DNA of 62,439 bases, from positions 1 to 62,439 of the IMG/VR virus record IMGVR_UViG_3300006737_000032, one strand, 5' to 3'. This document shows, in pieces, positions 910 through 62,439 of this stretch (its first letter is position 1; each line of letters starts with the position of its first letter). The notes below the pieces were generated by a model. That model saw only the letters and a list, made by a program, of their open reading frames with translations, did not search any database and was not told the origin of the DNA. Made by a program: the position numbers and the translations under genes. This DNA is from a virus (lineage: Duplodnaviria > Caudoviricetes).

Positions 910-1434
910 ATGAATATCAAGTTCGAAGACTTGGAACTTCCCAAGCAATCCAACGCAGACATCCGTTCTGAGTGGTTCATCAAAGCAGTCAATGACATCA
1001 ACGAGCAGCACGGGTTGTCGCTCAAGGAAATTGGCAGAGAGACAGGTGTATCAATGACTGTCATGTATGCATGCTGGAACATTCAGTCGCCGCTTCACAA
1101 GTTTGGCCGACGTCCAACCGAGACCACAATCAAGAAGATTGCAAAGCGGTTTAACATTGCGCTTCCCGACTATATGATTGAGCGAGACGCTCGGCAAGAA
1201 ACCATCTTCGATTTGGAGAAGAAGAGAACTCCACAAGAGAAGAAAAAAGTTAACTCGGACATCATGACGAAGCAAATCCCCAAGCTCTACAAGGTGGCAC
1301 AGGTGGCAGAATTCCTTGATGTCTGCAGTCAGACTGTCATCAAGTGCATTGAGCGTGGCGAGATTAAGGCGAAGCGAGTGGGCAAGCAGTATCGTATCCG
1401 TGAGCGCGACTTGATCGAGTACATGAACTCATGA
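910..1434 (+). CDS. DNA-binding protein with Cro/C1-type HTH and C-terminal excisionase-like HTH
   Basis: LSLKEIGRETGVSMTVM HTH; LYKVAQVAEFLDVCSQTVIKCIERGEIKAKRVGKQYRI fits the HTH_17/Xis pattern; start moved to ATG 910 after an A-rich leader. Confidence 0.8.
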   Translation: MNIKFEDLELPKQSNADIRSEWFIKAVNDINEQHGLSLKEIGRETGVSMTVMYACWNIQSPLHKFGRRPTETTIKKIAKRFNIALPDYMIERDARQETIFDLEKKRTPQEKKKVNSDIMTKQIPKLYKVAQVAEFLDVCSQTVIKCIERGEIKAKRVGKQYRIRERDLIEYMNS

Positions 1435-1437
1435 CAC

Positions 1438-1833
1438 ATGAACCGACGATTCAGAGTTCGATTCCACCTTGGTCGGGGCCCCAACTACATGACGTGGCAG
1501 GTCACAGACAGAGGCAACGGGAATCACAAGGACTATTACAATCCAGAGGTATGCTCCATCCATATGAAGAACTGCTTGTTCGGCAACAATCCTGCAACGG
1601 CCCAGAAGATATTCGACGGCAACCACAAGACTGTGTGCGCATGGGTGGACTGTGCGGACCTGCACGTATCATACACGAAGGCGCCCGACTACGAGAAGCC
1701 TAACGTAAAGGAGTTGATGCAGTTCAAGTATAATCCACGAAAGTCAATCCACTGGAACACAGACATTAACGACAATGTAGATGGACTAATCGTCGAACAC
1801 TTAGTGACACACAACAAAAAACTCTATGGCTAA
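1438..1833 (+). CDS. conserved phage hypothetical protein
   Basis: 131-aa ORF; RFHLGRGPNYMTWQV and KTVCAWV..YNP motifs resemble small phage proteins. Confidence 0.65.
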   Translation: MNRRFRVRFHLGRGPNYMTWQVTDRGNGNHKDYYNPEVCSIHMKNCLFGNNPATAQKIFDGNHKTVCAWVDCADLHVSYTKAPDYEKPNVKELMQFKYNPRKSIHWNTDINDNVDGLIVEHLVTHNKKLYG

Positions 1834-2005
1834 CAACAACCTTCAGATGAGCGATGAGTTCGGCTCGCCTCGTCATCGACGTCGTAAGATGCAGAGACTC
1901 TTGAAGAAAAACCCAGGTCTCTTAGAGCGATTGACGAAGCAAATGCTGTTAAATGGTTGGAGACCAGAAGGTTATGATGAATCACCTGAAGCATCAGATG
2001 AATGA
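1826..2005 (+). CDS. small hypothetical protein (59 aa)
   Basis: Read by hand: MANNNLQMSDEFGSPRHRRRK..; overlaps the previous stop. Confidence 0.55.
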   Translation: MANNNLQMSDEFGSPRHRRRKMQRLLKKNPGLLERLTKQMLLNGWRPEGYDESPEASDE

Positions 2006-2076
2006 CCTGCTTCTATACAGCTATATAAGCTTATGAATATACCTATATACAAACCTAATCTAAACTGTTAAAAAAC

Positions 2077-2448
2077 ATGTGGGGCAAAGACATGAACAGA
2101 ATCATCAAAGAGTTTGATGATGAAAGCACAGCTGCACGAGTAGCGTCTCGCATGGTAAAAATTGATTTGATGTCAATGCCATTATCAGAATGGTTGACAC
2201 GACCTGCATCAGAGATTGTCAATGAGTACGTCGAAACAGCAGAAGCTGCATCGGGTGTCGCACTCAACAACCTAAGATCACACGCGGCTGGAGAGAAACT
2301 GCTTGACGAGTTGGGGTTTCACGACCAAGACTTCCGTATTGTTTTTGATGAGGCTATAGATGAATTCAGAGACAGCATGCTGGCAACGATGAAGTCTCTG
2401 AACATATACCTCGCGATACAAGAGAGGGCAAAAGAAGAGTTGACATGA
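2077..2448 (+). CDS. hypothetical protein
   Basis: 123-aa ORF, coupled to the next gene. Confidence 0.7.
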   Translation: MWGKDMNRIIKEFDDESTAARVASRMVKIDLMSMPLSEWLTRPASEIVNEYVETAEAASGVALNNLRSHAAGEKLLDELGFHDQDFRIVFDEAIDEFRDSMLATMKSLNIYLAIQERAKEELT

Positions 2449-2993
2449 TGTCCCCAACTGAATACCAAGAGTCTAGAAAGTTTTTGTTTAAGGTGGTTCG
2501 AAAGAGATACGAAGAACTGCTTGGTGCAAAGATGGACCTGAAGTCTCGGAAGCATGAGCAGGTAGTGCATCGTATGGCCCTGTCTAACTCTCTTCGACCG
2601 TTCCTGACATGTCAAAATATTGGAGACATGCTCAGTAAGGACCACTCTTCGATTGTTCACTACCAAAAAGAGCATCATCCTCTGCTAAAACACAGCGCAT
2701 ACTACCGAGAGCAGTTCAGAAGGTCGCTTCATATTGTGAATGAGGTTAGCACGGAAATGGACCTGCACCCAAACATCCTCGGGCGCAATGGCGCCAATGT
2801 TGACGGGCAAGTGCAGGCTATCGCAGACATCATCATGGACCTTGAGAACCTGTTGGACCGAATGCTTGTCAACAGAGAAAATGCAAGAGCGATTTGGAAG
2901 AGAAGATTGGAGGCTATACATTTGCCAACGCGGGACACCAATCCAGCAGGTGGTCTAAGTAAAGACAAACGAAATTTAATTCATTCAAAATGA
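2445..2993 (+). CDS. DnaA C-terminal (domain IV)-like HTH protein
   Basis: LTCQNIGDMLSKDHSSIVHY resembles the DnaA domain IV motif SLPEIGxxFGGRDHTTVLH. Confidence 0.65.
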   Translation: MMSPTEYQESRKFLFKVVRKRYEELLGAKMDLKSRKHEQVVHRMALSNSLRPFLTCQNIGDMLSKDHSSIVHYQKEHHPLLKHSAYYREQFRRSLHIVNEVSTEMDLHPNILGRNGANVDGQVQAIADIIMDLENLLDRMLVNRENARAIWKRRLEAIHLPTRDTNPAGGLSKDKRNLIHSK

Positions 2994-3544
2994 GCACCTA
3001 TAAATTCAAGACCACGAACATTCGTGGCAAGAGCTACGTTGAAGTCAACGAGCGCATCAAGTTCTTCAGACAGGAAGAGCAGTACAAGAACTGGACTATC
3101 GCAACAGACTTTCCAGTCCTCGATTCAGAGCAGTGTTTATGCAAGGCAACGGTGTGTGATACATCGGGTCGGATCGTATCCGTGGGCCACGCCCACGAAG
3201 AGCGGTCATCGTCGAACATCAACAAAACCTCCTATGTCGAAAACTGTGAAACCTCTGCTGTTGGCCGAGCCCTTGCAATCCTTGGAATCGGAATCGAAAC
3301 ATCAATTGCGTCGGCTAACGAAGTCGAAGAAGCTATTGCCAAGCAGCAAGCTATCGCTGAGAACCCTCACGTTCAAAAGCTTAGCAAGGCGCTTGATGCG
3401 CCAGTAGAGAACATCATGGACAAGGCTGTGTCATACATCAAGTCACAGACCGACAAGAAGAAAGCGTTCACTGCGGTTACAAAAAAGTATGGTGAACAGC
3501 TTACAGAGAAGCAGGTTGCTGGACTCAAGAAATTTGTACGATGA
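2990..3544 (+). CDS. ssDNA-annealing protein (Rad52/Sak-like)
   Basis: IRGKSYVEVNERI, GHAHE, NKTSYVENCETSAVGRALAILGIG motifs; adjacent to an exonuclease. Confidence 0.75.
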   Translation: MSTYKFKTTNIRGKSYVEVNERIKFFRQEEQYKNWTIATDFPVLDSEQCLCKATVCDTSGRIVSVGHAHEERSSSNINKTSYVENCETSAVGRALAILGIGIETSIASANEVEEAIAKQQAIAENPHVQKLSKALDAPVENIMDKAVSYIKSQTDKKKAFTAVTKKYGEQLTEKQVAGLKKFVR

Positions 3545-3696
3545 AAAATACACTTCTAATCGCGGCCTTTGTGTCAATGGCCATGTCTTTGACACTCTGG
3601 TTCACAGGCAACCAAATGGCTGGACTGTATGTTGGTATTTGGTGTCCAACAATCCTTGGTCTTGAATCCTTCACTTCTAGCGGAGGCAAATCATGA
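3541..3696 (+). CDS. small two-TM membrane protein (51 aa)
   Basis: Read by hand: MKNTLLIAAFVSMAMSLTLWFTGNQMAGLYVGIWCPTILGL..; ATGA overlaps at both ends. Confidence 0.6.
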   Translation: MKNTLLIAAFVSMAMSLTLWFTGNQMAGLYVGIWCPTILGLESFTSSGGKS

Positions 3697-4460
3697 GCAT
3701 GCGGGACAAGTTGACGGAGAGTGTGGGCAAGCCCCACCTCTCCTACTCTTCCCTAAAGCACGCGCTCGGGGACATGCGTCTCTGGGAGATGTACATGCGA
3801 GGCGAACTCAAGAAAGAGAGCGAAGCTCTTCGATTTGGTAGCTTGTATGACATGATGCTGTTCGAGCCAGAGAAAGCGAATGATACTTACCTTTATCTTG
3901 ACGACACCGATATTGTTGCTGCTATTGGTGGCCGTAACCCTAGAGTTACGAAGAAGTACCGAGAGTGGAAAGCAGAGCAGGCGGAAGCCAATGCGGACAA
4001 AGAGCTGGTATCTAAAGAGGACTGGGAGAAAGCGCAAGAGATGATCAAGCGCCTGAAGGACTGCGGGTTGTATTACAAGCAGTTCGAGGGTGGGAAGTTT
4101 CAAGTGGAGTTCAACGTAGACCTTGATGGTATTCCCCTCAAAGGATTCTTGGACTGTCTGCAAAGCGACCGCATCATTGACAGCAAGTCTTCTAGGGCTA
4201 TTGACAAATTTAGGTATGATGTGAACAGCTGGTCGTATGACATTCAGGCTTATATCTACACCAAGGTGTTTGGCATCAAGGATTTTTATTGGGTTGTGCA
4301 AGAGAAGACGTTCCCGTATTACCCTGCTGACGTAAAGTGCAGCGAAGAAACACTATTCCGTGGCGAGATGAAATTCCATCAAGCCTTGGAGAACATTAAG
4401 AGCTGGTTGGATGAGTCACCTGAACAAAGAGAAACCAATTTTGCAACGTTTGTTGTGTGA
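3693..4460 (+). CDS. PD-(D/E)XK exonuclease (RecE/DUF3799-like)
   Basis: HLSYSSLK, ALRFGSLYD, LKGFLDCL..IIDSKS, YDIQAYIY motifs. Confidence 0.8.
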   Translation: MSMRDKLTESVGKPHLSYSSLKHALGDMRLWEMYMRGELKKESEALRFGSLYDMMLFEPEKANDTYLYLDDTDIVAAIGGRNPRVTKKYREWKAEQAEANADKELVSKEDWEKAQEMIKRLKDCGLYYKQFEGGKFQVEFNVDLDGIPLKGFLDCLQSDRIIDSKSSRAIDKFRYDVNSWSYDIQAYIYTKVFGIKDFYWVVQEKTFPYYPADVKCSEETLFRGEMKFHQALENIKSWLDESPEQRETNFATFVV

Positions 4461-4557
4461 AATGCTATCAGAAGTGGTGATGCATGCGTTCTATTTGTAC
4501 TGCGTATACATCACGCTCCTATGGATCTATCAATTGTTTAATTAAATTCTATATCAC

Positions 4558-4857
4558 ATGAGTGAACAGAAGTATGATAGCGTGCTCGTAGGGTACGCTG
4601 AAGAGCCACGACGTGGCGACGATGGTCAAATCATTGCATGGACTGTGCGAATGAAGGACCACGAACTCAAGGAAATGGTGGACAAGTATGCCACCTCACG
4701 TAATGAACAGGGTCAAGGCGGCAACGTCTACCTTACAATGTTCATGTCTAAGAACGGAAAATCATGCTGTCGCGTGTACGATCCAAACAGCGAGGCCGCA
4801 AAGCAAAAGCGAGCGGCTAAGCAGGCGGAGACTGCAACCGACGATGTCCCGTTCTAA
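4558..4857 (+). CDS. putative ssDNA-binding protein
   Basis: Acidic-aromatic tail DDVPF as in SSBs; replication cluster context. Confidence 0.55.
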   Translation: MSEQKYDSVLVGYAEEPRRGDDGQIIAWTVRMKDHELKEMVDKYATSRNEQGQGGNVYLTMFMSKNGKSCCRVYDPNSEAAKQKRAAKQAETATDDVPF

Positions 4858-5131
4858 GGCTCCAATCTATTTCATGACCGCTCGTGTCGCCTTCAAGAAA
4901 CGGAAGGTTGTACATGAGCGCGTCATGTGGATAGTGTCTGTCTACGACAACCCGAATGACATACGCAACTATGATACGAAGACCATGCATCGACTGGAAA
5001 CAGAGCTGTATGGCAAGAACGCGAAGTCAGAGAAGCACATTATTATTCGGGAAATCATAGAGAAGAAACTGATTTCATACTCTAACCTGACTGTTGATGA
5101 ACACAAGAAGCAAAATCAAATCGAAGTGTAA
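4844..5131 (+). CDS. hypothetical protein
   Basis: In-frame ATG at 4844 (MSRSKAPIYF) overlapping the previous gene end. Confidence 0.55.
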   Translation: MSRSKAPIYFMTARVAFKKRKVVHERVMWIVSVYDNPNDIRNYDTKTMHRLETELYGKNAKSEKHIIIREIIEKKLISYSNLTVDEHKKQNQIEV

Positions 5132-5462
5132 GAAGCTGGAGGACCTTCTGCTTCAAAAAAATGCGAAGTATGGTGACGCTGCCTTGCAGCCCATCAACAT
5201 CTTCTCTAAGGCTAATGCTGTGTCCAGTATCAAAGCTCGTATTGATGACAAGCTTAAGCGAGTCATGAATGCTGGTCCGATTGACGACACCGAAGACACC
5301 CTGCAAGACCTTGCTGGGTACATGATTCTCTTAATGATTGCCAAGGATAATGAAAGTAACGATATTCAAAAACGTCTTCGAGAAGACAACGCCTCATCAC
5401 ATAACACTACAAATAGCGCTGGATCGGATCAAGAATGGTCGGTCGAGTACCATAGTGACTGA
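5094..5462 (+). CDS. nucleotide modification-associated domain 1 (Nmad1/DUF1599-like) protein
   Basis: LLQKNAKYGD..RIDDKLKR..EDTLQDLAGYMIL pattern. Confidence 0.75.
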   Translation: MMNTRSKIKSKCKKLEDLLLQKNAKYGDAALQPINIFSKANAVSSIKARIDDKLKRVMNAGPIDDTEDTLQDLAGYMILLMIAKDNESNDIQKRLREDNASSHNTTNSAGSDQEWSVEYHSD

Positions 5463-7149
5463 GGTTCGAGATGGAAATAAAGAGAAGAAGAAAGAGCTCC
5501 CCGTTGTTTGTTTCAGCGGGGAGTTTTCGTCGAGAGCCGATGACGCGCTCTTCGAGCATTCGGGATTTGTTGTTCTGGACTTTGACCACGTTAACGTTGA
5601 CTCAACCAAGACGTCCCTTGCCACGGATGATTTCATTCATTCATGCTGGACTTCGCCTAGCGGAAACGGCATCAAGGCGCTTGTCAGAATCACGAACCCA
5701 GAAAGACACAGGGACCACTTCCGTGCGCTAGTCACATACTTTGACAAGCAGTATGGGTTGGAGGTAGACCAGAGTGGCATCAATGAATCTCGCGCATGCT
5801 TTGAGTCTCACGACCCAGACATCATCATCAAGGATGAGTGTAAGAGGTTCGGAGCGTTTAACACCGAGAAGGCTGAGGCGCAAGCGCCAATCATAGCCGA
5901 GGGGGAGTACACAGATTACATGCGCCTGAACTTGGCCGCACGTATGATTCGCCGTGCTGATGACGGTGATAAGCACGCTACGTTGCTAAAGGCAGCGAAG
6001 CTGTGTGGTGGGTACATCAGTGCTGGACGCATGGAGGAAGACGAGGTTATCCGTGTCTTGCTAAGGGAGATTAGCAAGCGAGACATCGACTCAGAAGAAC
6101 AGGCTGTTCGCACGATCCGTGATGGGTTGGAGAATGGAAAGGGCATGCCTATTCGTGAGCTTATAGAAGGCGTCAAGGATGCTGAACGTCAGATGCGACT
6201 GCACGATGGGGACATGTCATTCATCTCGTCTGATGACGACGACTTTAAATGGATTGACGACTTCTCTCAAGGCAAGGTGGAGCTAGGCTTGGACACAGGA
6301 GACGCACTTCTCGACGAGCACTTCAGGTACAAGAAAGAGTTTGTCATCATCAACGGTCATAGTAACGTGGGCAAAACAACTACTGCCCTGTACTTCATTG
6401 TCAATGCAGCCATCAGGCATGGGTGGAAATGGGTGCTGTACTCTTCTGAAAACAGAACGGCATCCGTCAAGATGAACTTGATGCAGATGGCCATGAATAA
6501 GAAGGTGGGTGACATGTCGTATTACGAGCGCAAGAAGGCATACAAGTGGGTAAACGATCACTTTGTTATCATCAACAACGACCAAGTATACAGTTACGGT
6601 GACATCGTTCTATTCATGGAGAAAGTCATGGCTCAGCAAACCATTGACGCTATCTTCGTAGACCCATACAACAGCCTGAAGATTGACCTAAGGAACAATG
6701 CCATCAGCACTCATGACTATCACTACGAGGCTGCGTCTACATTCCTGACTTTCAGCAAGGCAAATGATGTGGCCGTGTGGCTGAACATGCATGCCTTTAC
6801 TGAGGCTCAGCGTCGCAAGGGTGAGGATGGATTGCCAACCGCACCATATGCTGAGGACACAGAAGGCGGCGGTAAGTTTGTCAATCGCTGTGACTGTTTT
6901 GTGACAATCCACAGGAAGGTGCAGTCAGCTGACCCCAACATCAGAAAGATGAGTGAGTTTCACGTTCGCAAGGTTCGCGAAGTAGAGACAGGGGGTAGGC
7001 CTACACCGCTTGATGAGCCGTACAGAATCGTCATGAACTTAGGTCACACTGGCTTTTCGGGGTGGCTGAGCCAAAAGCCTCTGTTCGACAACATAGAATT
7101 CAAGAAACAACAAATGCCTTACAGAATAGACTTCTTGTCACAGCAATGA
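5350..7149 (+). CDS. primase-helicase fusion (VirE-N/BT4734-like primase-polymerase domain + DnaB-like helicase)
   Basis: KKKELPVVCFSG, VVLDFDHV, SPSGNGIK in the N-terminus; Walker A GHSNVGKTT and Walker B IFVDPYN in the C-terminus. Confidence 0.85.
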   Translation: MKVTIFKNVFEKTTPHHITLQIALDRIKNGRSSTIVTEVRDGNKEKKKELPVVCFSGEFSSRADDALFEHSGFVVLDFDHVNVDSTKTSLATDDFIHSCWTSPSGNGIKALVRITNPERHRDHFRALVTYFDKQYGLEVDQSGINESRACFESHDPDIIIKDECKRFGAFNTEKAEAQAPIIAEGEYTDYMRLNLAARMIRRADDGDKHATLLKAAKLCGGYISAGRMEEDEVIRVLLREISKRDIDSEEQAVRTIRDGLENGKGMPIRELIEGVKDAERQMRLHDGDMSFISSDDDDFKWIDDFSQGKVELGLDTGDALLDEHFRYKKEFVIINGHSNVGKTTTALYFIVNAAIRHGWKWVLYSSENRTASVKMNLMQMAMNKKVGDMSYYERKKAYKWVNDHFVIINNDQVYSYGDIVLFMEKVMAQQTIDAIFVDPYNSLKIDLRNNAISTHDYHYEAASTFLTFSKANDVAVWLNMHAFTEAQRRKGEDGLPTAPYAEDTEGGGKFVNRCDCFVTIHRKVQSADPNIRKMSEFHVRKVREVETGGRPTPLDEPYRIVMNLGHTGFSGWLSQKPLFDNIEFKKQQMPYRIDFLSQQ

Positions 7150-7162
7150 TTATATTGCATGT

Positions 7163-7609
7163 ATGCGAAAGAAACAACGACGGAGTCGGTCTAGTCGCAG
7201 CAAAAAGTTAGGAAGGTATAAGAGTTCGATAGAAAAGTACTGTGCCGACAAGCTCAAAGAGAATGGTATTGAGTTTGATTATGAGGAGACAGCATTCGAA
7301 CTGCTAGACAAGTTTAGATTCCCGCACGGCTATTGGAAGATGACTTCCAAAGCAAAACTAATGTCCAACAGGACGGGATCTGTTCTGCAGCCTATACGGT
7401 ACACTCCAGATTTTATGGGGAAGTCAGGCAAATGGGTGATAGAAACCAAAGGGTATCTGCCATCACATCATGACTTTCCAATGAGATGGAAGCTTTTTCT
7501 GAGGCACATTGTTGACAATGACCTTGGTTATGCTGTATTTTTAGCTAAGAATAGTCAACAAGTTGATCAGGCTATTCAACAGATACTAAAGATAGAGCGT
7601 CATGACTAG
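7163..7609 (+). CDS. endonuclease I (T7 gp3-like Holliday junction resolvase)
   Basis: YKSSIE..FDYE..YTPDF..IETKG motif. Confidence 0.8.
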   Translation: MRKKQRRSRSSRSKKLGRYKSSIEKYCADKLKENGIEFDYEETAFELLDKFRFPHGYWKMTSKAKLMSNRTGSVLQPIRYTPDFMGKSGKWVIETKGYLPSHHDFPMRWKLFLRHIVDNDLGYAVFLAKNSQQVDQAIQQILKIERHD

Positions 7610-7832
7610 GGACCAGCTAAGCCTAATGTATATGGTGGCTACTATGCGCGTTCATCAAGCCACATCAAACATGTACGAAGAACTTCATGATCTAGATGGC
7701 GATCCACTGGAGGACCCCGACGCAGTAAAAGAGCTGTTGAATGAATTCAAGAGGACTACGATAGAAGAGATTTCTTTAGCTCTGTCAGCGGTCCAAGAGT
7801 TCATAGATGAAGATGGCCACAAGGAAGAGTAG
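7602..7832 (+). CDS. hypothetical acidic protein
   Basis: 76-aa ORF overlapping both neighbours. Confidence 0.6.
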   Translation: MTRDQLSLMYMVATMRVHQATSNMYEELHDLDGDPLEDPDAVKELLNEFKRTTIEEISLALSAVQEFIDEDGHKEE

Positions 7833-8346
7833 GGTAGACCTGCGGCTCGGCAGGGTGGTTGAGAACCGATGGCTTCGGATATTTCCTAACGCCCGAAAGT
7901 CTAGTCAAGAAGAAGACATGTACATGCACGTTGACTTCTGGCATGACAGTGTTGGAGTGGACGTAAAGGGAAACAACTTGCCCGATGAGATCTGGGTAGA
8001 GTTTATCAACGTGAACGGAAAGAAAGGGTGGCTACATGGTGGGGCCAAGTACATAGCATTTGATGTTCCAGAGCTCAGGGGATTCATCAGGGTAAAAAGA
8101 GCAGAGCTTCTTGAGTGGTGCAGACATAATGTAGAGAAGAGTTATGTTCAAAAAAACGACTGCTACCGCAAGCTATACCGCAGGTATGGCCGCAAAGACT
8201 GCATCACAAAGCTTACAATAAACGATCTGGCAGAGCTTACAAGCTACACTCTAATCAACTATGTGTCATGGATTTACCACCCAGTGACTGGAGAAAAGAT
8301 TGAAATAGACCAGCCACGCACCAGGTACAAGAGCACAAATGTGTGA
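7807..8346 (+). CDS. PD-(D/E)XK-like nuclease-fold protein
   Basis: HVDFW..VDVKG..IWVEF.NVNGKKGWL motif. Confidence 0.6.
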   Translation: MKMATRKSRVDLRLGRVVENRWLRIFPNARKSSQEEDMYMHVDFWHDSVGVDVKGNNLPDEIWVEFINVNGKKGWLHGGAKYIAFDVPELRGFIRVKRAELLEWCRHNVEKSYVQKNDCYRKLYRRYGRKDCITKLTINDLAELTSYTLINYVSWIYHPVTGEKIEIDQPRTRYKSTNV

Positions 8347-8409
8347 CACATAATCATCATTATACTACAATATATTGTGTAGAAAAAATTCTGGATCTAG
8401 ATTAGATCC

Positions 8410-8670
8410 ATGAAAACAATCGCGCTGTTATTGCCCGTACTTTTTGTTGGTTGCATGAGCACCCCAGCTAAGGTTTACGTGCAGCCAGAAAAATTCAATT
8501 GCGACCTTATCATCCCTACGATCTGGGATGGCAATCATCCAGTTGAACACTTCGAGCATGAGATGATTCTTGATGCTGTGTACCACGATTATACGGGGTA
8601 TAAGTACACACTGGTAGCAACAGACATCCCGAATGTCTTTGCCCTCCAGGTTGATGTGGATCAACCGTAA
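8410..8670 (+). CDS. putative lipoprotein
   Basis: MKTIALLLPVLFVGC signal peptide with lipobox Cys. Confidence 0.6.
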   Translation: MKTIALLLPVLFVGCMSTPAKVYVQPEKFNCDLIIPTIWDGNHPVEHFEHEMILDAVYHDYTGYKYTLVATDIPNVFALQVDVDQP

Positions 8671-8700
8671 CCTTACTACAGAACATAACGTATCCAGGGT

Positions 8701-8868
8701 ATGTGGTCAACATACATAATGGATTTCTTGCTTTTGTTAGCAAACTATGGCCAGGCCATTGACCCTGAGTCTCATGCTGCGTGCATGGACTTCAACAGCG
8801 ATGGGTTTATTACGATGTATGACTTCCTTGAAATGCTGTCCCAGCAGCCGTTAATCGAAAAGGAATGA
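8701..8868 (+). CDS. 55-aa dockerin/EF-hand-like mini-protein (below the ORF-track cutoff)
   Basis: MWSTYIMDFLLLLANYG..MDFNSDGFITMYDFLEMLSQ; stop overlaps ATG 8865. Confidence 0.6.
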   Translation: MWSTYIMDFLLLLANYGQAIDPESHAACMDFNSDGFITMYDFLEMLSQQPLIEKE

Positions 8869-9098
8869 TAAAGAATACAGAGTACCATCAAGTGGTGAAG
8901 GCTGTTGTTTCGAAGGACTTCAAGTTTATCCACGTTGACGCTGGCATAGGCGACAATGGATTCCAGCGCATTTTTACAGAGACACAAGAAGAGGAAGTCA
9001 TGCACTGCTACCTCTATCCAATTATCGAGCAGATAGTTCGGTCAGAGTTCTACGACCTTAAAGACATGGCGCTTACCATCAAGGTGACGTGGGTCTAA
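8865..9098 (+). CDS. hypothetical protein
   Basis: 77-aa ORF, last of the + strand block, converging on the - strand block. Confidence 0.6.
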   Translation: MIKNTEYHQVVKAVVSKDFKFIHVDAGIGDNGFQRIFTETQEEEVMHCYLYPIIEQIVRSEFYDLKDMALTIKVTWV

Positions 9099-15248: not shown

Positions 15249-18200
15249 TTGATTCTGGTATTGGGTCTCCACCGCGTTCTGACATGTCGAGGATTGCCCG
15301 TGTTTGTTCTTCTGTAAGGTTTCTTCTTCTGCACTCTGCAACGATGAGACGGACAAGCTCTAGATTAAACGCCGCAGCATTTTTCATGATTGTTACCGAT
15401 TGCTCTACTTTCTCGTCCATCGACAAAGACTTATACCAGGTCTCTCTTTCCACCATGGCGTCAACCTGTTTGTCGGTAAGCTGTGATGGGGGCAGGTATA
15501 CATTTGCGATATACGAAGTAGATGCGTCATCACTCAGGCCAGCGGCTTCGTGCATAGCGGTGATCTCGCCCACATTCAAGTCCAATCGGACCGTCATGTT
15601 CGTAACGTCTTGGCCCTTGGAGTGGTTCCTGTTGTGGATCTCCATGTAGTCTTGAGCTGCAGTCGCTATCTTCTTTGGGTCTCCAAGCTCTGGTTGCTTG
15701 GTGAACGGAGAGAATGATCTGTATTTGACTTGGTTCGCATACTCGTTCCACTCTTTTGTCTTGTTGGCACCAGCAACATCTACTGGCAGGTACGTGACTC
15801 TGAATCCAAGCAGACCGTATACGGCGTCTTCGAGCGTGTACTCTTTGTATCTGGTCTTTGGAGGGAAGTACTCGTAGAACTGATCCATGGCATTCTCCAA
15901 CGGGTGTCCGTTCGGAAGCTCTTCGTCACCAGACACAAGCTTAAAGACCTCTTCCACAGCCCCAGCTCTTAAGAATTCTGTTACGTTTCCAACAAATCCA
16001 GGTGCGACCTTCTTGAGGAATTGAACAAACACCTTGTCGGGTTGACGTATAGCTGCAGAAAGGGGTGACTCCCCAGGCTCAGTGTCTACAATTGACATGC
16101 CTCCCTCTTGTGTGTTTTGATAGAGCTCCTGAAGGAACCCAAACGTCACATCGCTAGAGAAGAACGGTGACCCAGCCTCCCACAAAGCAGACTGCAGTTT
16201 ATCTTGGAAGTTTACATCGTCAGGGTCCATGCCCATTACTGCCTTCAACGGCTTGAGAATAGCCTCGTGGGGTAGCATATAGGACATGTCCATGAAGTAT
16301 GGTGATCCATTCTCCACCCCCAAGTAAAACAGGTTAGATAGCTTCTGCCACTCTGGTCCAAGACTTCTTACTGCCTCATCGTCTTGATCTGTGAACCCGA
16401 GTCTGTCTTTGCTTTCTTCAGCAAGAGCATAAGCACTAACAAGAGACGCGGTGAGTCCCGCTGCCCTTCTCATAGCCATGCCTGTTCTTCCCGCTTGAAA
16501 GTCTTCAGCAATAAATTTGAATTGGTTGGTGGTTGTGCGCCACATCTCGTATGGGAATGACACAAAGGAACCAGCCAGTGGAAATCTTCTCAACTCTTTT
16601 GTGCCCCTAGAGATCTTGCTGTATGTGGGGTAGCCGTCCCTCACTCTCTGCGCAGCCTTGGCTTCTGCCTCTGCTACCGACATGCCCGAATCAAGAAACG
16701 CTTTGCGCTCTTGATAGTATCCATTGACCTTGTAGAAGTCATCACCAAATGCATACAGCTTCTGAGCGGTCTCCATCACCCTGTTGCCTTTCAGGATTCT
16801 GTTGACGTCGCCGCCCATGCTATCATTCAAGGTCTCCATGAGCTCTCGTGCATTTGCACCATCATTCAACACGCCAAGCTCAATGAGTTTTCTTACTTCA
16901 ACCCTGTATGTTTGATTTCTCTTAAACTTTCCATGCACCCCCCAAGCCATCTGCATGGCATCAAGGGTTGCCATTGGGTTTCTGGCAAAAGGAATGTGGC
17001 CGTTTGCAGCTGACAAGCCTAGCCCACTGATCAAGTTTCTTGCAGTGGTGGTTGGAGCCAGCACTGTTTTACCAACCTTGACGGCTGCGGACGCCTGAAC
17101 GAGCGTCTTGTATAAACCATCGTCGAGCGACTTGAGTGGCATTAGGTTGTCGAATGCCGTCTTAAAGTTCTGTGGTACGTATAGGTCAGCCAGTGGCAAC
17201 CAAGCCTCTGACGTAGGCGACAGCTTCACCATCTTTCCATTTGGTGAGTCCATCCCCTCAAACTCTACGCCCATGCGAGCCATCCCAGAGTCTCTAAGAA
17301 TCAACGACATTTCTGTTTGCCACCTTGCATTTGACAAGTACGAGTTCAGCTTTGACGCTGTTGTCACGTAGGCATTCATTGGGTCTTTGATCTTACCTAG
17401 CAAATCTTCAATCGGCTTGGGTAAATCTTTCTTAGCCTTCAAGAACGGTGCGTCCATAGCCCCCATCATGCTGAAGCCTCCGCCTCCATTTCTCTGGTTC
17501 TTTAGACCTATGAGATATGCGTTGAGCTCTCTCCGCGCCAGTTTTTGACGCTCCGCCTTTGTAAGCGGCACATCACCAAACGGCTGATCATATCTCTCTG
17601 CGATGTAGTCGATCGCGTTCTTGTATATCTTCTGAATGTCTGGGGGCATGGCATCATATCCACCCTCCTGTGTTAACAAGTCAAGTCTTCTGCCCCCATC
17701 GTTGAACAGTTCATACGATGTGGTCAAATATCTACCTTTGTTTGATCTGATCTTTTCGATCAGCTCTGCTCTTGCCTTTGCTTGTTCTGGCGTGCCCAAT
17801 GGCTGTTTCTCAAGCGTAGCAATAAGAGACTCCGACAAGCCGTCAATCTGCTCCCTAAAGAACGTAAGCTGTTCTTTGGAGTCCGCGCTAAGGTTGTTGA
17901 GCCTTGGGTCGTCCATTTTGATCTTGCCCTCCAGAGCTTCCAGCATCGCTGCCTGAGTGTCCTTGAGCATAGCTCCCTTGATTCTGATTCCGCCAGGTCC
18001 ACGGCGCACCTGTCTAAGCAGGTTTCTCCAAGACCGAGCATCAAACGATACCTCATTTATCCATGCAGAAGCAAGGCGCTCTCTGCTTCGGACGACCTCT
18101 TCAATCTCTGGGTTTTTGATTCCGCCGTTGCTCTTGAACCATTTGTTCCAAACGTTTTTGGCCTTCTGGCCGAACCTCTTGACAGTGGCGGACCTTTTGT

Positions 18201-52413: not shown

Positions 52414-52424
52414 GAATTAAATTG

Positions 52425-52498
52425 TGCGCCTGTCAGGACTCGAACCTGAAACCTGCGCATTAGAAGTGCGCTGCTCTATCCTGTTGAGCTACAGGCGC
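52425..52498 (-). tRNA. tRNA-Arg(TCT)
   Basis: Canonical cloverleaf: GCGCCTG/CAGGCGC acceptor, GCGCA-CTTCTAA-TGCGC anticodon arm, GGTTCGAGTCC T arm; no encoded CCA. Confidence 0.95.
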
Positions 52499-57932: not shown

Positions 57933-58572
57933 GCACAGCAAGCCTTGCGTCTAAATCAATAACTGATTCCACGTACCAACAAAAAACACTCTGAACAGCT
58001 GTATATGCTTATGAGCGTTTGCTACCACCTTATCAGCTATGCGAAGGTATAAATTTTTTTTTCAAAAGTCAAGATTGAAGTAACTCTTGAGGCAACAGGC
58101 TGTAAGTTATTGATTAGGCTGTTGTTAAACGCTTGCGTGCGGAAACTATGCGCGAACGATACTGGCAAAATCTGATCAGAAACACGTGGTTTGGGGATTA
58201 TATACATTTGTACACGTCCGTCACGTCTGCCCGAACGCGACCCTTGACCCCACCCCCCTTAACATCTTCGATGTTACTGCAAAACTTTCTGACTTTTTAC
58301 CTTCGGTAACCATCGGTTTCAAAAATCGTCAGGATTCTATAGCAATTCCAAGCAGGGGGACAAAACCCCACACGTTACAGCACGCAGTCCGAAGGACCAC
58401 GCATGGTAACGCACAGGGTTTGCTGTTGACAATTCAAATACCAACACAAAAATCTCACCTCGCCTCGCATGATGCCCACGTCATGCCTGCACATGAGGCC
58501 GCTTCTTTACCTGTTTCCACGCGGACTACTACGTAGTCTTCAGGCGGGAGAAATCGCGCAGGAAGAAGGGGC

Positions 58573-58604
58573 TTGGATTTTGCCGAAAGTTGACCATACC
58601 TTTG
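58573..58604 (+). promoter_or_regulatory. early promoter, Bacteroidota -33/-7 type
   Basis: TTG (58573) - 21 nt - TACCTTTG (58597-58604), upstream of the first early ORF. Confidence 0.7.
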
Positions 58605-58644
58605 CAGCGGCAATCTTGCCAACTCAAACTTCAATTCATCTCCG

Positions 58645-58836
58645 ATGAAATCAATCAACACTCAGACTCTGAAAGAGTCTTACAAGCAGTCAGTTACACT
58701 GACTGAAGCCCGTATTCAAGCTTTGCTTGAGCTGTTTTGGACTGCTGACATAGAGAGCCTTTGGCTCTGTCTTGAGTTCTGTGAACTCAGTACCGAAGAG
58801 CAAGCTGTCATCGTAGATGAAATCGAAAACCACTAA
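58645..58836 (+). CDS. early hypothetical protein
   Basis: 63 aa, preceded by the TCAAACTTCAA leader. Confidence 0.65.
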   Translation: MKSINTQTLKESYKQSVTLTEARIQALLELFWTADIESLWLCLEFCELSTEEQAVIVDEIENH

Positions 58837-59383
58837 TTCATCGAAGATGAAGTACTCAGCAACAGCTGCAGCTAAAGCTGCAAACCAAGCCATCAACCAT
58901 CCATCCATGGTTCGTAAGAACCATGCCATCAAGCTTCTGAAAGAAGCTCTGAAGGTCATTGAGAACCTCGAAGAGGTTCCAATGGAATCTTGGGACTATC
59001 CATCAGAACCTCTTCCAGAGGTACTGAACATCAGTCATCTTATGACTGAATGGGACTTCATGTTCACCGAAGGTGAAACGATGTCTTTGACTTGTCCGAA
59101 GGACAAGATTGAACTGCCGAAGGCAGTATTCGACGAAGTCGATGAATGGCTTGAACTTCTACTTGACTTCGAAAATCTTGCAGATTTCGAAACCGACGAA
59201 GATGGCACTATCTACTTCGTAGATTGTGATGAAGCCTCCAATACTGATGTTTACATCAGTAAGATTCAAGCTTTGCTTGAGCCCTTTGGAATGAAATTCC
59301 AATGCACATTCCTCGAAGAGGAATATGAGAAAGCCAATGCTCTTCCCTTGGAAGAGAAACTCCGACGATTCGAACTCTGCTAA
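58817..59383 (+). CDS. acidic early hypothetical protein
   Basis: 188-aa ORF (start may be 58847), Glu/Asp-rich. Confidence 0.65.
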   Translation: MKSKTTNSSKMKYSATAAAKAANQAINHPSMVRKNHAIKLLKEALKVIENLEEVPMESWDYPSEPLPEVLNISHLMTEWDFMFTEGETMSLTCPKDKIELPKAVFDEVDEWLELLLDFENLADFETDEDGTIYFVDCDEASNTDVYISKIQALLEPFGMKFQCTFLEEEYEKANALPLEEKLRRFELC

Positions 59384-59406
59384 AGCAGAGAGATTGCCGA
59401 CCAACT

Positions 59407-59459
59407 GAGGGGACTCTCAGACACTCTGAGTCTTACGAAGAGTGTCAGAGAGGACCCTC
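59407..59459 (+). other. tandem-GA hairpin A
   Basis: GAGGG-GA-CTCTC-A-GACACTCT-GA-GTCTTAC-GA-AGAGTGTC-A-GAGAG-GA-CCCTC. Confidence 0.75.
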
Positions 59460-59498
59460 CCAAACCATTCAAACTTCAATTTTCAAATTTCATTTCCA

Positions 59499-60128
59499 AT
59501 GAAAAAGTCAACCAACAGAGTCGAACTGCTGAAAGCAGTTTCAGTTTCAGTCAATGAGTTCTACTTCTCACCGTCAACGGTGAGAAAGGGTCAAGCAAGA
59601 CAAGCCATCAAAGAACTCTCTGAGTTCGTTGAAGCCATCGAGTTGCCGAAGGCAACCAAGTCAAAGACATCTGACAAGCAGTCCCAAGGGACTGATGAGA
59701 TGATGGAGTTGTTCAAGCAGTTCCTCATGTCACAGGGTATGATGCCCGATGCACCGAAGGTGACCAAGACCAAGCCGAAGGCTAAGGCCAAGCCGAAGCG
59801 TCGTCGTAAGACGACCATCAAGAAAGCTACTCCACAGCAACGAGTTGCTGACAGACAAGAGAAAGCCTTTCATGGAAAGGCTGACAGCCCAGTCAAGCCT
59901 TGTTCCAAGGCTAAGACAGCTTCGGTAGAAGCTGCTCGGCAGTCAGTTCAACAGCTTGGCGAAGCCAACGGCAGTGATGAGAGAATCCGTCAACGAGCTT
60001 TAGCTCGTAAGGCTGAAGTCCTCAAAGCTTTCCAAGCGAAGCTTGATGCAGAGTTCCCCTTGGATGGAACATCCAATGAGGTTTCATTCTCTGACTTGTC
60101 ACTCCGTGAACTCCGTGACATGATGTGA
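59499..60128 (+). CDS. basic early hypothetical protein
   Basis: Start MKKSTN after the leader motif; Lys-rich centre. Confidence 0.7.
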   Translation: MKKSTNRVELLKAVSVSVNEFYFSPSTVRKGQARQAIKELSEFVEAIELPKATKSKTSDKQSQGTDEMMELFKQFLMSQGMMPDAPKVTKTKPKAKAKPKRRRKTTIKKATPQQRVADRQEKAFHGKADSPVKPCSKAKTASVEAARQSVQQLGEANGSDERIRQRALARKAEVLKAFQAKLDAEFPLDGTSNEVSFSDLSLRELRDMM

Positions 60129-60140
60129 TATCATATGACA

Positions 60141-60196
60141 GGCACACTGACGAGGCTTCAATAGCCGAAACACCCCCTTCGGGGGGTGTCTGTGTC
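60141..60196 (+). ncRNA. type I hammerhead ribozyme (HHR1)
   Basis: Stem I GGCACA/TGTGTC, core CTGACGA, stem II GGCT-TCAAT-AGCC, GAAA, stem III CACCCCC-TTCG-GGGGGTG, GTC site; cleavage after 60190. Confidence 0.92.
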
Positions 60197-60217
60197 AAAC
60201 TTCAAACTTCATCTACG

Positions 60218-60322
60218 ATGGACATTATTCTCTACGGCATGCTCATGCCAATCGCAGGTATCATACTCATCATGATATGGGTCGATGCCAACCACAACCA
60301 AAACGACAACATTGGGGGGTGA
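60218..60322 (+). CDS. 34-aa single-TM peptide
   Basis: MDIILYGMLMPIAGIILIMIWVDANH..; follows the leader motif. Confidence 0.6.
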   Translation: MDIILYGMLMPIAGIILIMIWVDANHNQNDNIGG

Positions 60323-60372
60323 GTATATACACTCTATGAGTTCTTACGAATAGAGTGATATACGAACCACCC
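60315..60372 (+). other. tandem-GA hairpin B
   Basis: GGT-GA-GTATAT-A-CACTCTAT-GA-GTTCTTAC-GA-ATAGAGTG-ATATAC-GA-ACC. Confidence 0.75.
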
Positions 60373-60395
60373 ATAAACCTTCAAACTTCAACACC

Positions 60396-60761
60396 ATGGC
60401 CTCAACACAATCATTGTATCACCTCATCCAAAGCGGTGAGGGGTTCAGCGTCAAGACAGACGGAATGACATATAACGGACTTGGCTACGCTGTCGGCGGA
60501 GCCGCTGACTGCAAGCTGTTCAAATGTGCCAATGAATCGCTGTCATTCATTGCATTTGAACAAGAGTTCAAAAAAATCCAAGCGTCATCACATGGTGACC
60601 CGTTCCAAGTGATAGGTGGATGGGTCGATGACCAAGGGTTCTTCTATCTCGAACTTTCTGACGTAGTCAGGTCACACTATGTGGCAATGGAACTTGCTAA
60701 GGCAAGAAACGAAAAAGCCATCTACGACTTCAACAACGCAAGCTCAATCGAGGTACACTGA
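60396..60761 (+). CDS. conserved phage early protein
   Basis: GFS..GYAVG..IGGWVD..YLELS..A...NEKAIYD; stop codon lies inside the HHR2 core. Confidence 0.75.
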   Translation: MASTQSLYHLIQSGEGFSVKTDGMTYNGLGYAVGGAADCKLFKCANESLSFIAFEQEFKKIQASSHGDPFQVIGGWVDDQGFFYLELSDVVRSHYVAMELAKARNEKAIYDFNNASSIEVH

Positions 60762-60803
60762 CGAGTCCTGAGTGGACGAAACACCCTTCGGGGTGTCTGT
60801 ATC
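60752..60803 (+). ncRNA. type I hammerhead ribozyme (HHR2)
   Basis: Stem I GGTACA/TGTATC, core CTGACGA, stem II GTCC-TGAGT-GGAC, GAAA, stem III CACCC-TTCG-GGGTG, GTC site; cleavage after 60797. Confidence 0.92.
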
Positions 60804-60822
60804 AAACTTCAAATCATCTACG

Positions 60823-61425
60823 ATGAATCCAAAAACATTTGACAAGATGATGTCAAAGATGCGTAGCAACGTATCACATTGGCATGACATGGCAACGGAT
60901 GATGTCATACAAGATGGTGTGGCATGGTACGACGAAGCCAAGGGCTTTGCTCTGATGCTGTCCAATGAATTCGACATATCACCACTCCGTGCAGGGGGAG
61001 TCATCTCGGCTCTCTCTCCGAGAAACAGATGGGAACGAAACAAGATTGATGCTTGGAACGTCTTTCAAGCTGTACATGATGACGTATCACACGATCGTGT
61101 GAAGGTCAGCACCTTCAATTCCAACAAGGTCAAGGCATTCAACATTGCAAAGGGACTGATTCAAGTCCACGAAGCAAGCCGAAAGACTCACCGATTCGCT
61201 TTGAATGTGGGTGCATTTGATATGAATGCTGTCACGATTGATACATGGATGGTGTACAGCTTTCAGACCAAGTCGAAGACTCGGAAGAACTTGGACAACC
61301 AGATTACACCGAAGCAATACGACCTATTGGAACGCAAGTTCCAACGCATCTCATATGACATGGGGTATGCCCCTGCACATTTGCAAGCTGTGGTATGGTT
61401 GGTCATCAGAGAACTATGGACATGA
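60823..61425 (+). CDS. phage protein, possibly HhH-GPD/DNA-glycosylase-like fold
   Basis: G.AWY..A, GVISALSPRNRWERN, KT..F..N, VTIDTWM, LQAVVW; fold assignment tentative. Confidence 0.6.
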   Translation: MNPKTFDKMMSKMRSNVSHWHDMATDDVIQDGVAWYDEAKGFALMLSNEFDISPLRAGGVISALSPRNRWERNKIDAWNVFQAVHDDVSHDRVKVSTFNSNKVKAFNIAKGLIQVHEASRKTHRFALNVGAFDMNAVTIDTWMVYSFQTKSKTRKNLDNQITPKQYDLLERKFQRISYDMGYAPAHLQAVVWLVIRELWT

Positions 61426-61574
61426 CAAAGAAAATACAATTCATCATCCCTAACGGAAGAAAGTTTGTTGTTGTTAAAACATTCAAAGACAAAAACCACT
61501 ACGACAACTACGTATCATATATGCGTAGAGAAAACCGCTTCATCTTTGATGAGGTGTGGAACGTAACTAACTGA
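61422..61574 (+). CDS. small hypothetical protein (50 aa)
   Basis: Read by hand: MTKKIQFIIPNGRKF..; ATGA overlap. Confidence 0.6.
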   Translation: MTKKIQFIIPNGRKFVVVKTFKDKNHYDNYVSYMRRENRFIFDEVWNVTN

Positions 61575-61599
61575 AACACAAACACATAATACATATTAC

Positions 61600-61752
61600 A
61601 TGAAGAATCGAGTTAACTATGCGTTCCTTGCCTTCCTCGCATGGATGGCGGCACTGATGGTCGTAGTCGTTTTGCAAGGCTGTACGACATATGATGCACA
61701 TACGCAGTACATCAAACCTGTTGGCAACACCGAATGTGCCGCTTACAACTAA
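61600..61752 (+). CDS. small lipoprotein (50 aa)
   Basis: Read by hand: MKNRVNYAFLAFLAWMAALMVVVVLQGC, lipobox LQGC. Confidence 0.6.
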   Translation: MKNRVNYAFLAFLAWMAALMVVVVLQGCTTYDAHTQYIKPVGNTECAAYN

Positions 61753-61754
61753 TG

Positions 61755-61815
61755 TAGTGTGAGTGTGTATCACCTTCTTAAACGAAGTGTAGAAGTGATA
61801 CACACGAACACACTA
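61755..61815 (+). other. tandem-GA hairpin C
   Basis: GTGT-GA-GTGTGTATCA-C-CTTCT..AGAAG-TGATACACAC-GA-ACAC. Confidence 0.7.
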
Positions 61816-61836
61816 AACCACTCAAACTTCAACCCC

Positions 61837-62151
61837 ATGAAATTCAAACTAGACTTCAAGACCACGCTACCACACGTAGCTATGACCACGGCATACGACA
61901 TTGACATAGACCGAGCCACGGGCGTAGAGATGGACACCACCGTAGAGATTGACCCCAACCACGGAACAGGTGGGTGGTACGAAACCTACGACCTTGACAC
62001 GGGAGGTGACCGCTTCTATGCAGGAGGAATCCTCGAAGTGTATTGGGATGACAACGGAGATGTACGCCTCACGGGGTACGATGGATGCTTCGAACTCCCT
62101 GAATTTATCACCGATGCTCTTGAAAAGAAGGGCGTAATCATTGACCTATGA
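61837..62151 (+). CDS. acidic early hypothetical protein
   Basis: Start MKFKLDF after the leader motif; GYDGCFELP motif. Confidence 0.7.
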   Translation: MKFKLDFKTTLPHVAMTTAYDIDIDRATGVEMDTTVEIDPNHGTGGWYETYDLDTGGDRFYAGGILEVYWDDNGDVRLTGYDGCFELPEFITDALEKKGVIIDL

Positions 62152-62342
62152 GCGATTACAAAAATCACGACACCTGCCACAAGTGCGGAGGCACTGGCAT
62201 CTTCCTCGAATCCCAAGAGGTTGGCTACGGCCAACACGGAACATCCATGTGGCTCTACGACTACGAATGCGAGGACTGCCAAGCAACGTGGGACATAAGC
62301 CTTGAACTCACCCCTGTATCACGAGAAAACCACGAATCATGA
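62148..62342 (+). CDS. small zinc-ribbon protein
   Basis: CHKCGG and CEDC. Confidence 0.65.
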   Translation: MSDYKNHDTCHKCGGTGIFLESQEVGYGQHGTSMWLYDYECEDCQATWDISLELTPVSRENHES

Positions 62343-62439
62343 CACAAGAACAATGCGAACGTGCAGTCAAGGCACTGAAAGAATCAGGCTTCTCTGCCTC
62401 CCATGTAATGGGTGAGCCTGACGACCACGGAGTGTGGTT
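62339..62439 (+). CDS. 3'-truncated hypothetical protein
   Basis: MTQEQCERAVKALKESGF.. runs off the contig end. Confidence 0.5.
   Translation, partial: MTQEQCERAVKALKESGFSASHVMGEPDDHGVW

Follow-up and report, generated by a model that had tools for sequence, protein, structure and literature searches.

Two leader-fused type I hammerhead ribozymes as likely cistron separators in a phage with a probable Flavobacteriia host

Two type I hammerhead ribozymes, Hammerhead 1 (HH1, 60141-60196, plus strand) and Hammerhead 2 (HH2, 60752-60803, plus strand), are located between small genes of a Caudoviricetes virus known from the IMG/VR record IMGVR_UViG_3300006737_000032, a complete-looking record of 62,439 bp that is referred to as the window throughout. 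We regard both as almost certainly true hammerheads, and our analyses suggest that they probably function as separators or insulators of cistrons in a polycistronic plus strand mRNA. As far as sequence comparison can settle such a question, the related copies found in other phages are decisive for their hammerhead identity. Each ribozyme is joined in fixed register to a conserved, G-poor leader that precedes the next start codon, and the same leader follows long hairpins that take the place of the ribozyme at orthologous genes.

Sequence and fold of the two hammerheads

The region 59900-61100 was read directly. In HH1, stem I is formed by GGCACA (60141-46) and UGUGUC (60191-96), the core consists of CUGACGA (60147-53) and GAA (60167-69) with C17 at 60190, and stem II pairs GGCU with AGCC around the loop UCAAU (60154-66). 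Its stem III starts with A60170-U60189 and comprises 8 bp, including the A15.1-U16.1 pair, with the strands ACACCCCC and GGGGGUGU capped by UUCG at 60178-81. The corresponding parts of HH2 are a stem I of GGUACA (60752-57) and UGUAUC (60798-60803), a core of CUGACGA (60758-64) and GAA (60778-80) with C17 at 60797, a stem II of GUCC and GGAC around the loop UGAGU (60765-77), and a stem III of 6 bp with a UUCG cap (ACACCC-UUCG-GGGUGU, 60781-96). Direct reading thus found the canonical core in both elements (C3-A9, G12-A14, A15.1-U16.1 and C as H17), and their topology is that of type I, with an open stem I and capped stems II and III. When each element was folded alone, the three-way junction was both the minimum free energy (MFE) structure and the centroid, with HH1 reaching -25.6 kcal/mol (z -3.36).

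The predicted cuts are at 60190/60191 in HH1 and 60797/60798 in HH2, and the next AUG codons, at 60218 and 60823, are located 27 and 25 nt downstream, respectively. The two elements are spaced 607 nt apart and both lie on the coding strand. The stop codon upstream of HH1 is at 60126-28, and the UGA at 60759-61, within the CUGA box of HH2, is itself the stop codon of the open reading frame (ORF) 60396-60761. An earlier note, made from the letters of this stretch, had described two complete hammerheads with all three stems and a UUCG-capped stem III, and its description proved exact to the base. Its account of how the two copies differ (another stem II, a C-G pair exchanged for U-A in stem I, and stem III of 7 versus 5 bp, which is right when counted beyond A15.1-U16.1) was likewise confirmed, as was its spacing between cut and AUG.

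Related copies and covariation

Because the Rfam evidence was weak on its own, relatives were searched for with a pattern that covered only the 3' half of the ribozyme and the leader (CGAAAC, a gap, GTC, a gap and CAAACTTCAA). Among viral contigs this pattern gave 92 matches, of which 49 (44 of them distinct) also possessed the 5' half that had not been asked for, namely CUGAnGA, stem II and the 5' strand of stem I; the rest were unrelated sequences. To form alignment A1, the two window copies were added to the 44 distinct ones found in IMG/VR contigs, giving 46 distinct sequences. In A1, 98.9% of the 736 cells at paired positions were paired, compared with 24-52% when the partners were slid by 1-3 columns, and changes on both sides occurred at 8 of the 16 pairs: three of the six stem I pairs, three of the four stem II pairs and two of the six stem III pairs. 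One position of stem II is occupied by CG, UA, GC or AU, and the closing pair 17-29 (G10.1-C11.1) is G-C in all 46 copies; the alternatives are UA/CG, CG/UA and AU/UA in stem I, and AU, GC, CG and UA in stem III. The covariation score was 0.366, versus 0.126 for shuffled alignments, and was reached by none of 500 shuffles. The selection on structure that had been proposed from the two window copies is therefore borne out by covariation in all three stems across 46 copies.

A covariance model made from A1, designated R1, scored 86.2 bits for HH2 and 81.7 bits for HH1, the next best match in the window being 13.3 bits. R1 detected 57 copies in 45 related loci and at least one copy in each of 41 whole related IMG/VR records, including all 14 with a CheckV completeness of at least 94%; of these near-complete relatives, ten harbor one copy, three harbor two and one harbors four. 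One of the two R1 matches in G034 lacks the hammerhead core. The full core is kept in four copies without an exact leader (L058:409-469, L079:1856-1918, L017:7625-7684 and L090:1931-1992), and the stem I of L079:1856-1918 is entirely different yet fully compensated. A DNA similarity search with 58000-62439 against the phage collection gave no match.

The architecture around stem I is also fixed, as stem I is exactly 6 bp long, G-C closed and flanked by A on both its 5' and 3' sides in 53 of 53 family copies, in which loop II reads U-N-A-N-U. This architecture, the conserved flanking A's included, is suggestive of a tertiary contact of stem I with loop II, on which fast cleavage at cellular Mg2+ concentrations would depend.

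Scores against the Rfam families

In the window, no hammerhead was found at the Rfam gathering score, and a tRNA was the sole match. When a 2.9-kb search was run in E-value mode, HH1 scored 28.2 bits against RF03152 (RAGATH-1-hammerhead; gathering threshold 56.3, E 0.068) and aligned to the entire model, its small 5' hairpin included, while HH2 scored 21.2 bits against RF00163 (Hammerhead_1; gathering threshold 34, E 0.088). An Infernal check with the type I model, which the earlier note had proposed, thus returned matches, but these remained below threshold. The gathering score was passed by neither window copy, by none of 32 family copies in 19 loci and by none of the 29 broad-scan copies tested from 12 loci (see below), the best sub-threshold families being RF03152 and RF00163 at 27-34 bits. 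HH1 and HH2 have the catalytic core and the type I topology in common with RF03152 and RF00163; as their scores are below the gathering thresholds, they are not filed as members of these families as curated. Current Rfam thresholds therefore miss the whole leader-fused group, which constitutes an annotation gap.

A conserved leader and its exchange between ribozymes and hairpins

The window contains six exact copies of the leader CAAACUUCAA (10-mer CAAACTTCAA). All are on the plus strand within 58625-61832, and an AUG follows each of them at a distance of 4-19 nt. One copy follows HH1 (60196-60205, AUG 60218), where stem I ends with the C of the leader and the first leader A forms the conserved 3' flank of the ribozyme, and another follows HH2 (60803-60812, AUG 60823), where stem I likewise ends with the leader's C. 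Three copies are preceded by long plus strand hairpins: the hairpin at 59407-59459 (-35.6 kcal/mol, z -5.11) is followed by the leader at 59470-79 and the AUG at 59499, that at 60313-60373 (-30.4 kcal/mol, z -6.32) by the leader at 60382-91 and the AUG at 60396, and that at 61755-61815 (-27.8 kcal/mol, z -5.53) by the leader at 61823-32 and the AUG at 61837. The remaining copy, at 58625-58634 (AUG 58645), has no ribozyme and stands behind the sequence TAccTTTG (58597-58604). The leader is G-poor and variable in its spacing to the start codon, and it is probably a translation leader that is independent of the Shine-Dalgarno (SD) sequence.

The three hairpins are irregular helices of roughly 20-25 bp with symmetric 2x2 G/A internal loops, and none of 200 shuffles was as stable. 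No Rfam match to them was obtained in E-value mode when 59500-62439 and 1-9000 of the window were scanned. They are likely processing sites of the RNase III type. The apical tandem G.A pairs of these hairpins are replaced by Watson-Crick pairs in relatives.

In total, 192 copies of the leader were found in the window and 41 related loci, and 165 of them are followed within 30 nt by an AUG that opens an ORF of 30 aa or more. When these 165 copies were sorted with a crude energy threshold, the preceding element was a hammerhead in 51, a hairpin-like fold in 105 and neither in 9. The downstream proteins were clustered into gene families, and near-identical contigs were counted as separate rows. 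The 123-aa family stands behind a hammerhead in 25 rows and behind a hairpin in 2, one of the latter being the 121-aa gene at 60396 of the window; the corresponding numbers of hammerhead and hairpin rows are 7 and 27 for the 48-aa family, 2 and 14 for the 83-aa family, and 1 and 3 for the 54-aa family. As these gene families occur in both states, and always via the leader CAAACUUCAA, the idea that hammerheads and hairpins are interchangeable separators, advanced earlier for this phage, holds at the level of orthologous genes. The register of the ribozyme relative to the gene is similarly constrained: among 43 distinct instances of a hammerhead with its leader, 39 have 25-27 nt between the predicted cut and the AUG.

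Several further structures were observed around these elements. A mini-hairpin that includes the start codon, CAUC-NNN-GAUG, covaries to CAUU-NNN-AAUG and is present in the window at 60210-60220 and 60815-60825; it was found at 29 of 43 hammerhead-linked starts versus 10 of 84 hairpin-linked starts. A hairpin of -2.5 kcal/mol or lower lies upstream of 36 of 52 hammerhead copies, and in many relatives a small hairpin located 5-8 nt 5' of the ribozyme holds the upstream stop codon in its loop (e.g., GAUAU-GUA-AUAUC and ACUGC-UGAAA-GCAGU). The leader 10-mer also occurs on the strand opposite the hammerhead, after a G/C-rich hairpin as ...GGUCAAACUUCAAUCAACCAA and mostly without a following AUG, in loci L007, L015, L017, L021, L023, L027, L030, L048, L054, L056, L071, L074, L089 and others.

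Three additional candidates were considered and rejected. Sequences resembling a tRNA T-arm are located directly 5' of leaders in L021, L023, L030 and L048, which raised the possibility of tRNA as a third separator, but ARAGORN calls no tRNA there. A pseudoknot between loop II and the leader (UUGA/UCAA) cannot be formed by many copies, as judged by eye, including HH1 with its loop UCAAU. Stem III is not an intrinsic terminator, as no U tract follows it and no plus strand terminator-like site is present at HH1 or HH2.

Proposed function and alternative explanations

In the account that we favor, each ribozyme would be transcribed within the polycistronic RNA, fold, and cut after C17 (60190 and 60797). 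The upstream product would keep its stop codon and have a 2',3'-cyclic phosphate at its 3' end, preceded by the compact hairpins of stems II and III, and the downstream product would carry a 5'-OH, 6 nt and the unstructured, G-poor leader CAAACUUCAA within a 5' untranslated region (UTR) of 25-27 nt. Such protein-independent separation would uncouple the stability and the translation of neighboring cistrons, and the next gene would gain a standard, structure-free initiation region independent of the sequence upstream. The long hairpins of the same operons would play a comparable part, probably through cutting by an RNase specific for double strands, for example RNase III. The analysis shows the motif with its conservation and covariation, its constant register relative to the leader, and its exchange with hairpins at orthologous genes; that the RNA is cut, what becomes of the two products, when the genes are expressed and which enzyme attacks the hairpins are inferred.

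A number of observations weigh against this account. Folded alone, HH2 has a free energy of -17.4 kcal/mol with a z of only -0.98 (-0.31 in context), so that shuffled sequences are equally stable, and the MFE structure of HH1 in a context of 121 nt has its stem I 5' strand displaced by an upstream GUGACA. Given this competing stem I and the unremarkable stability of HH2, folding may depend on co-transcriptional order. Ribosomes that end translation of ORF 60396-60761 would, in addition, open stem I of HH2. The open stem I of 6 bp bears no loop, and no obvious loop-loop contact is present; both elements score below the Rfam gathering thresholds; and the invariance of the core in A1 is partly circular, as the pattern demanded CGAAAC and GTC and the filter demanded CTGAnGA. 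The ribozyme separators are, moreover, often single, with one copy in ten of the 14 near-complete relatives, so that repeated punctuation by ribozymes is the exception, and most of the separating is done by hairpins (105 rows versus 51 hammerhead rows).

An alternative hypothesis is that cleavage is regulatory, i.e., that the ribozyme sets or switches downstream expression and does not serve constitutive processing. The 5'-OH and the loss of ribosome flow from upstream could lower or raise translation or stability, and upstream translation or alternative folds could modulate how efficiently the ribozyme cuts. The overlap of the HH2 CUGA box with the upstream stop codon, the competing stem I in the context fold of HH1, the stop-codon hairpins 5' of many copies together with the upstream hairpins in 36 of 52, and the bias of the start-codon mini-hairpin towards hammerhead-linked genes are all consistent with such a role, and gene-control roles for phage hammerheads were discussed by Perreault et al. 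(PMC3088659). We nevertheless consider it unlikely, as the motif is minimal, contains no ligand-binding or sensor domain and stands nearly constant in sequence before unrelated genes, and its replacement by simple hairpins at orthologous positions is better explained by generic processing or insulation. The same exchange with plain hairpins could be taken to mean that structure alone matters, the junction blocking 3' exonucleases or spacing the cistrons, with self-cleavage irrelevant or lost; the strong, GC-rich stem III and the absence of an Rfam gathering score for HH1 or HH2 would be compatible with this possibility. However, no copy seen has lost a catalytic nucleotide, not even the four without an exact leader (the invariance in A1 being partly imposed by the search), and the broad scan added at least 127 more type I hammerheads that have this core. 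A mere hairpin would have no need of CUGAnGA...GAAA...GUC, and it is precisely this core that is fixed while the stems covary, which makes a purely structural role improbable.

The tandem arrangement of HH1 and HH2, in the same orientation and 607 nt apart, could also permit the release of a 607-nt RNA (60191-60797), bearing a 5'-OH and a 2',3'-cyclic phosphate, that a host ligase would circularize, as in retrozymes and viroid-like RNAs. The joined ends would pair GGUACA of HH2 with UGUGUC of HH1, one G-U replacing a Watson-Crick pair, and circular or spliced products were raised as a possibility by Perreault et al. (PMC3088659), whose text also states that such products were sought and none was found. 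We consider excision very improbable, since the flanked unit is not conserved (most near-complete relatives have a single copy), the segment consists of ordinary cistrons with their own leaders, and no RNA ligase domain was detected among the 28 distinct window ORFs scanned. As for a chance resemblance to the hammerhead consensus, the Rfam E-values of only 0.068 and 0.088 and the occurrence of the loose core pattern six times in the window, a number reached by one of 100 shuffles, might have favored it. It has been refuted by the existence of 57 related copies, among which each of the three stems shows compensatory changes, and by R1 scores approximately 70 bits above background. Stems are, moreover, present in only two of the six loose matches, HH1 and HH2, and virtually no weight is left to this explanation.

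Returning to the separator account, a more far-reaching version may be put forward tentatively, although we are inclined to doubt it: the early cistrons of SD-blind Bacteroidota phages may be built as modules of a processing element, the leader CAAACUUCAA and an AUG, in which the newly made 5' end (for a ribozyme, a 5'-OH located exactly 6 nt ahead of the leader) would be required for efficient initiation. The processing element would then be a hammerhead, a long hairpin cut by an RNase, or the start of a promoter transcript.

Genomic context and probable host

The window phage encodes its large terminase, portal and virion proteins on the minus strand and a primase/helicase on the plus strand, and 58,600-62,439 (plus strand) is a block of small ORFs, mostly without assigned function. 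Judging from this layout, it is a reasonable inference that the plus strand small-gene block represents an early operon. The first cistron after HH1 is a 34-aa hydrophobic ORF (60218-60322, plus strand) without a Pfam family. It is followed by the 121-aa ORF (60396-60761, plus strand), for which no Pfam or PHROG family was found and the protein atlas gave unnamed viral clusters only; its family is the one most often found behind a hammerhead in relatives. The first cistron after HH2 encodes a 200-aa DUF7178 / phrog_3842 protein (60823-61425, plus strand; PF23802, 112.8 bits). Relatives of this protein in L004-L006 (71-74% identity) have neither hammerhead nor leader, and the gene is there translationally coupled to the preceding gene; these loci thus contributed nothing to the covariation analysis.

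The terminase is closest, at 39-47% identity, to those of phages of Flavobacterium (68 records), Cellulophaga (15) and Tenacibaculum. Of 57 long ORFs, 6 are preceded by an SD-like 4-mer, a frequency no different from the random rate (0.11), and the regions upstream of ORFs are A-rich (39%) and G-poor (16%). The sequence TAccTTTG (58597-58604, plus strand) lies approximately 20 nt before the first leader, and a similar TAnnTTTG precedes the first leader in L048, L056, L081 and L050; the former matches the Bacteroidota -7 promoter consensus and is a putative promoter. Taken together, the terminase, the merely random frequency of SD-like sequences and TAccTTTG indicate, from sequence, that the host is most likely a member of Flavobacteriia. 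Initiation in Bacteroidetes has been reported to be tuned by mRNA structure and not by SD pairing (PMC6847099, PMC7797042).

The window also carries a tRNA-Arg (TCT) gene (52424-52498, minus strand, 71.8 bits), and relatives additionally possess tRNA-Ile (TAT). In L017, the hammerhead at 7625-7684 (minus strand) is located 28 nt 5' of a tRNA-like gene (L017:7528-7596, minus strand; Rfam tRNA, 38.8 bits), to which ARAGORN assigns an anomalous two-base anticodon. This arrangement suggests that a ribozyme might process a tRNA leader.

Hammerheads in other phages

A broad scan of viral contigs, using only the 5' half (CTGANGAG NNN T NNN T NNN CGAAAC), detected at least 119 stretches. Among the matches listed, 127 of 139 distinct sequences are complete type I hammerheads, with up to four per contig; many of them are followed by an ordinary SD sequence and AUG, and the hammerhead is 19-28 nt before the first ATG in 67 of the 127. 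When positions 1 and 5 of loop II were freed, at least 140 distinct copies passed the stem filters, and stem I was exactly 6 bp in 136 of 140; of these 136 listed copies, 132 have a G-C closed stem I, 135 an A on its 5' side and 134 an A on its 3' side. The phage type I architecture (A, a 6-bp stem I, A, and a 4-bp stem II with the loop U-N-A-N-U) thus appears to be widespread in viral contigs.

A related element is present in a cultured phage, Flavobacterium phage vB_FspP_elemoF_6-3D (NC_055853.1), in which R1 scored 46.5 bits at 16036-16105 (minus strand), followed by CAAACUUUAA; its stem II contains two mismatches in the R1 alignment. This hammerhead is unannotated in RefSeq and is overlain by an opposite-strand coding sequence of 35 aa, gp66. 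The same genome contains, at approximately 17865-17921 (minus strand; L096:1526-1582), a type III hammerhead-like element (RF00008, 36.3 bits; gathering threshold 48.5; E 7e-5), which lies upstream of the first gene in the same minus strand block and is followed by AAACUUAAA. In Pelagibacter phage HTVC019P (NC_020483.1), a type I-like element with GUA at the cleavage site (2945-3015, plus strand; R1, 36.7 bits) is located in the unannotated gap between gp09 and gp10. Its 5' half recurs, with 92-96% identity over 25-29 nt, in another six pelagiphage records and in the record of one uncultured phage.

Comparison with known systems

The closest precedents are the clustered hammerheads that flank prophage genes in polycistronic RNAs of Agrobacterium tumefaciens, Clostridium scindens and Azorhizobium caulinodans, described in 2011 (PMC3088659). 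Perreault et al. noted that the identities of the flanked genes vary, proposed that long phage transcripts are cut to operon- or gene-length mRNAs, and reported that three clustered arrangements cleave in vitro and one, that of A. tumefaciens, in vivo (PMC3088659). HH1 and HH2 resemble these clusters in that they are intergenic, belong to a phage operon, share the strand of the genes that flank them and occur in more than one copy nearby. Unlike the clusters, which are known for cleavage, HH1 and HH2 are known from sequence, their host is probably a member of Flavobacteriia and all copies are of type I; each copy, furthermore, continues in fixed register into a conserved leader that is not an SD sequence, and at orthologous positions the copies alternate with long hairpins. 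Another precedent is HHphage of the haloviruses HF1 and HF2, a hammerhead 13 nt before an early start codon, with a mapped 5' end within 3 nt of the cut (PMC3088659). The window phage has its hammerheads shortly upstream of a start codon as well, whereas HHphage belongs to an archaeal virus, has a two-nucleotide insertion in the core, needs high salt, and is a single copy at 13 nt instead of 25-27 nt.

Structured RNA elements between cistrons are also a feature of coliphage T7, where RNase III sites between the early genes are cut to yield individual mRNAs, with a hairpin left on the upstream 3' end. In T7 a host protein enzyme acts at every site, whereas the window phage would use self-cleaving RNA at some sites and hairpins, presumed to be RNase substrates, at others. 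Synthetic ribozyme insulators of the RiboJ type self-cleave just 5' of an ORF. Translation initiation in fungal and plant RNA viruses has been reported to be enabled by hammerheads in their 5' UTRs (PMC13725137). In both of these cases, self-cleavage directly upstream of an ORF defines the 5' end and influences translation, as it may in the window phage; however, the RNA viruses represent eukaryotic cap-independent translation and RiboJ is engineered, whereas the window phage relies on bacterial ribosomes.

The use of the two elements as repeated cistron separators had been called striking in the earlier note. Their position between plus strand cistrons supports such a use, but the emphasis was overstated, since the central idea was already in print in the 2011 report of Perreault et al. 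(PMC3088659) and was repeated in a 2019 review (PMC6765202), which, in its discussion of genomic hammerheads, treats their role in bacteria and phages as unresolved and calls for more work. In the main texts of the literature searched, we found no published description of the leader-fused family, of the exchange with hairpins at orthologous genes or of the failure of Rfam to detect these copies; Dataset S1 of PMC3088659 and the supplements to the RAGATH papers may list related copies. What is new here is thus the fusion to the leader in fixed register, the swap with hairpins and the lack of coverage by Rfam, whereas the element itself is of a known kind.

Implications

The exchange provides a natural comparison, in which the same genes, with an identical leader, stand behind a ribozyme in some phages and behind a hairpin in others, and vB_FspP_elemoF_6-3D offers a cultured system for testing the function of phage hammerheads. 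If the modular organization of early cistrons suggested above is true, the ribozymes would be natural translation-enabling insulators, a bacterial counterpart of the finding made in 2026 for fungal and plant RNA viruses, and genomic hammerheads of phages would gain a defined function.

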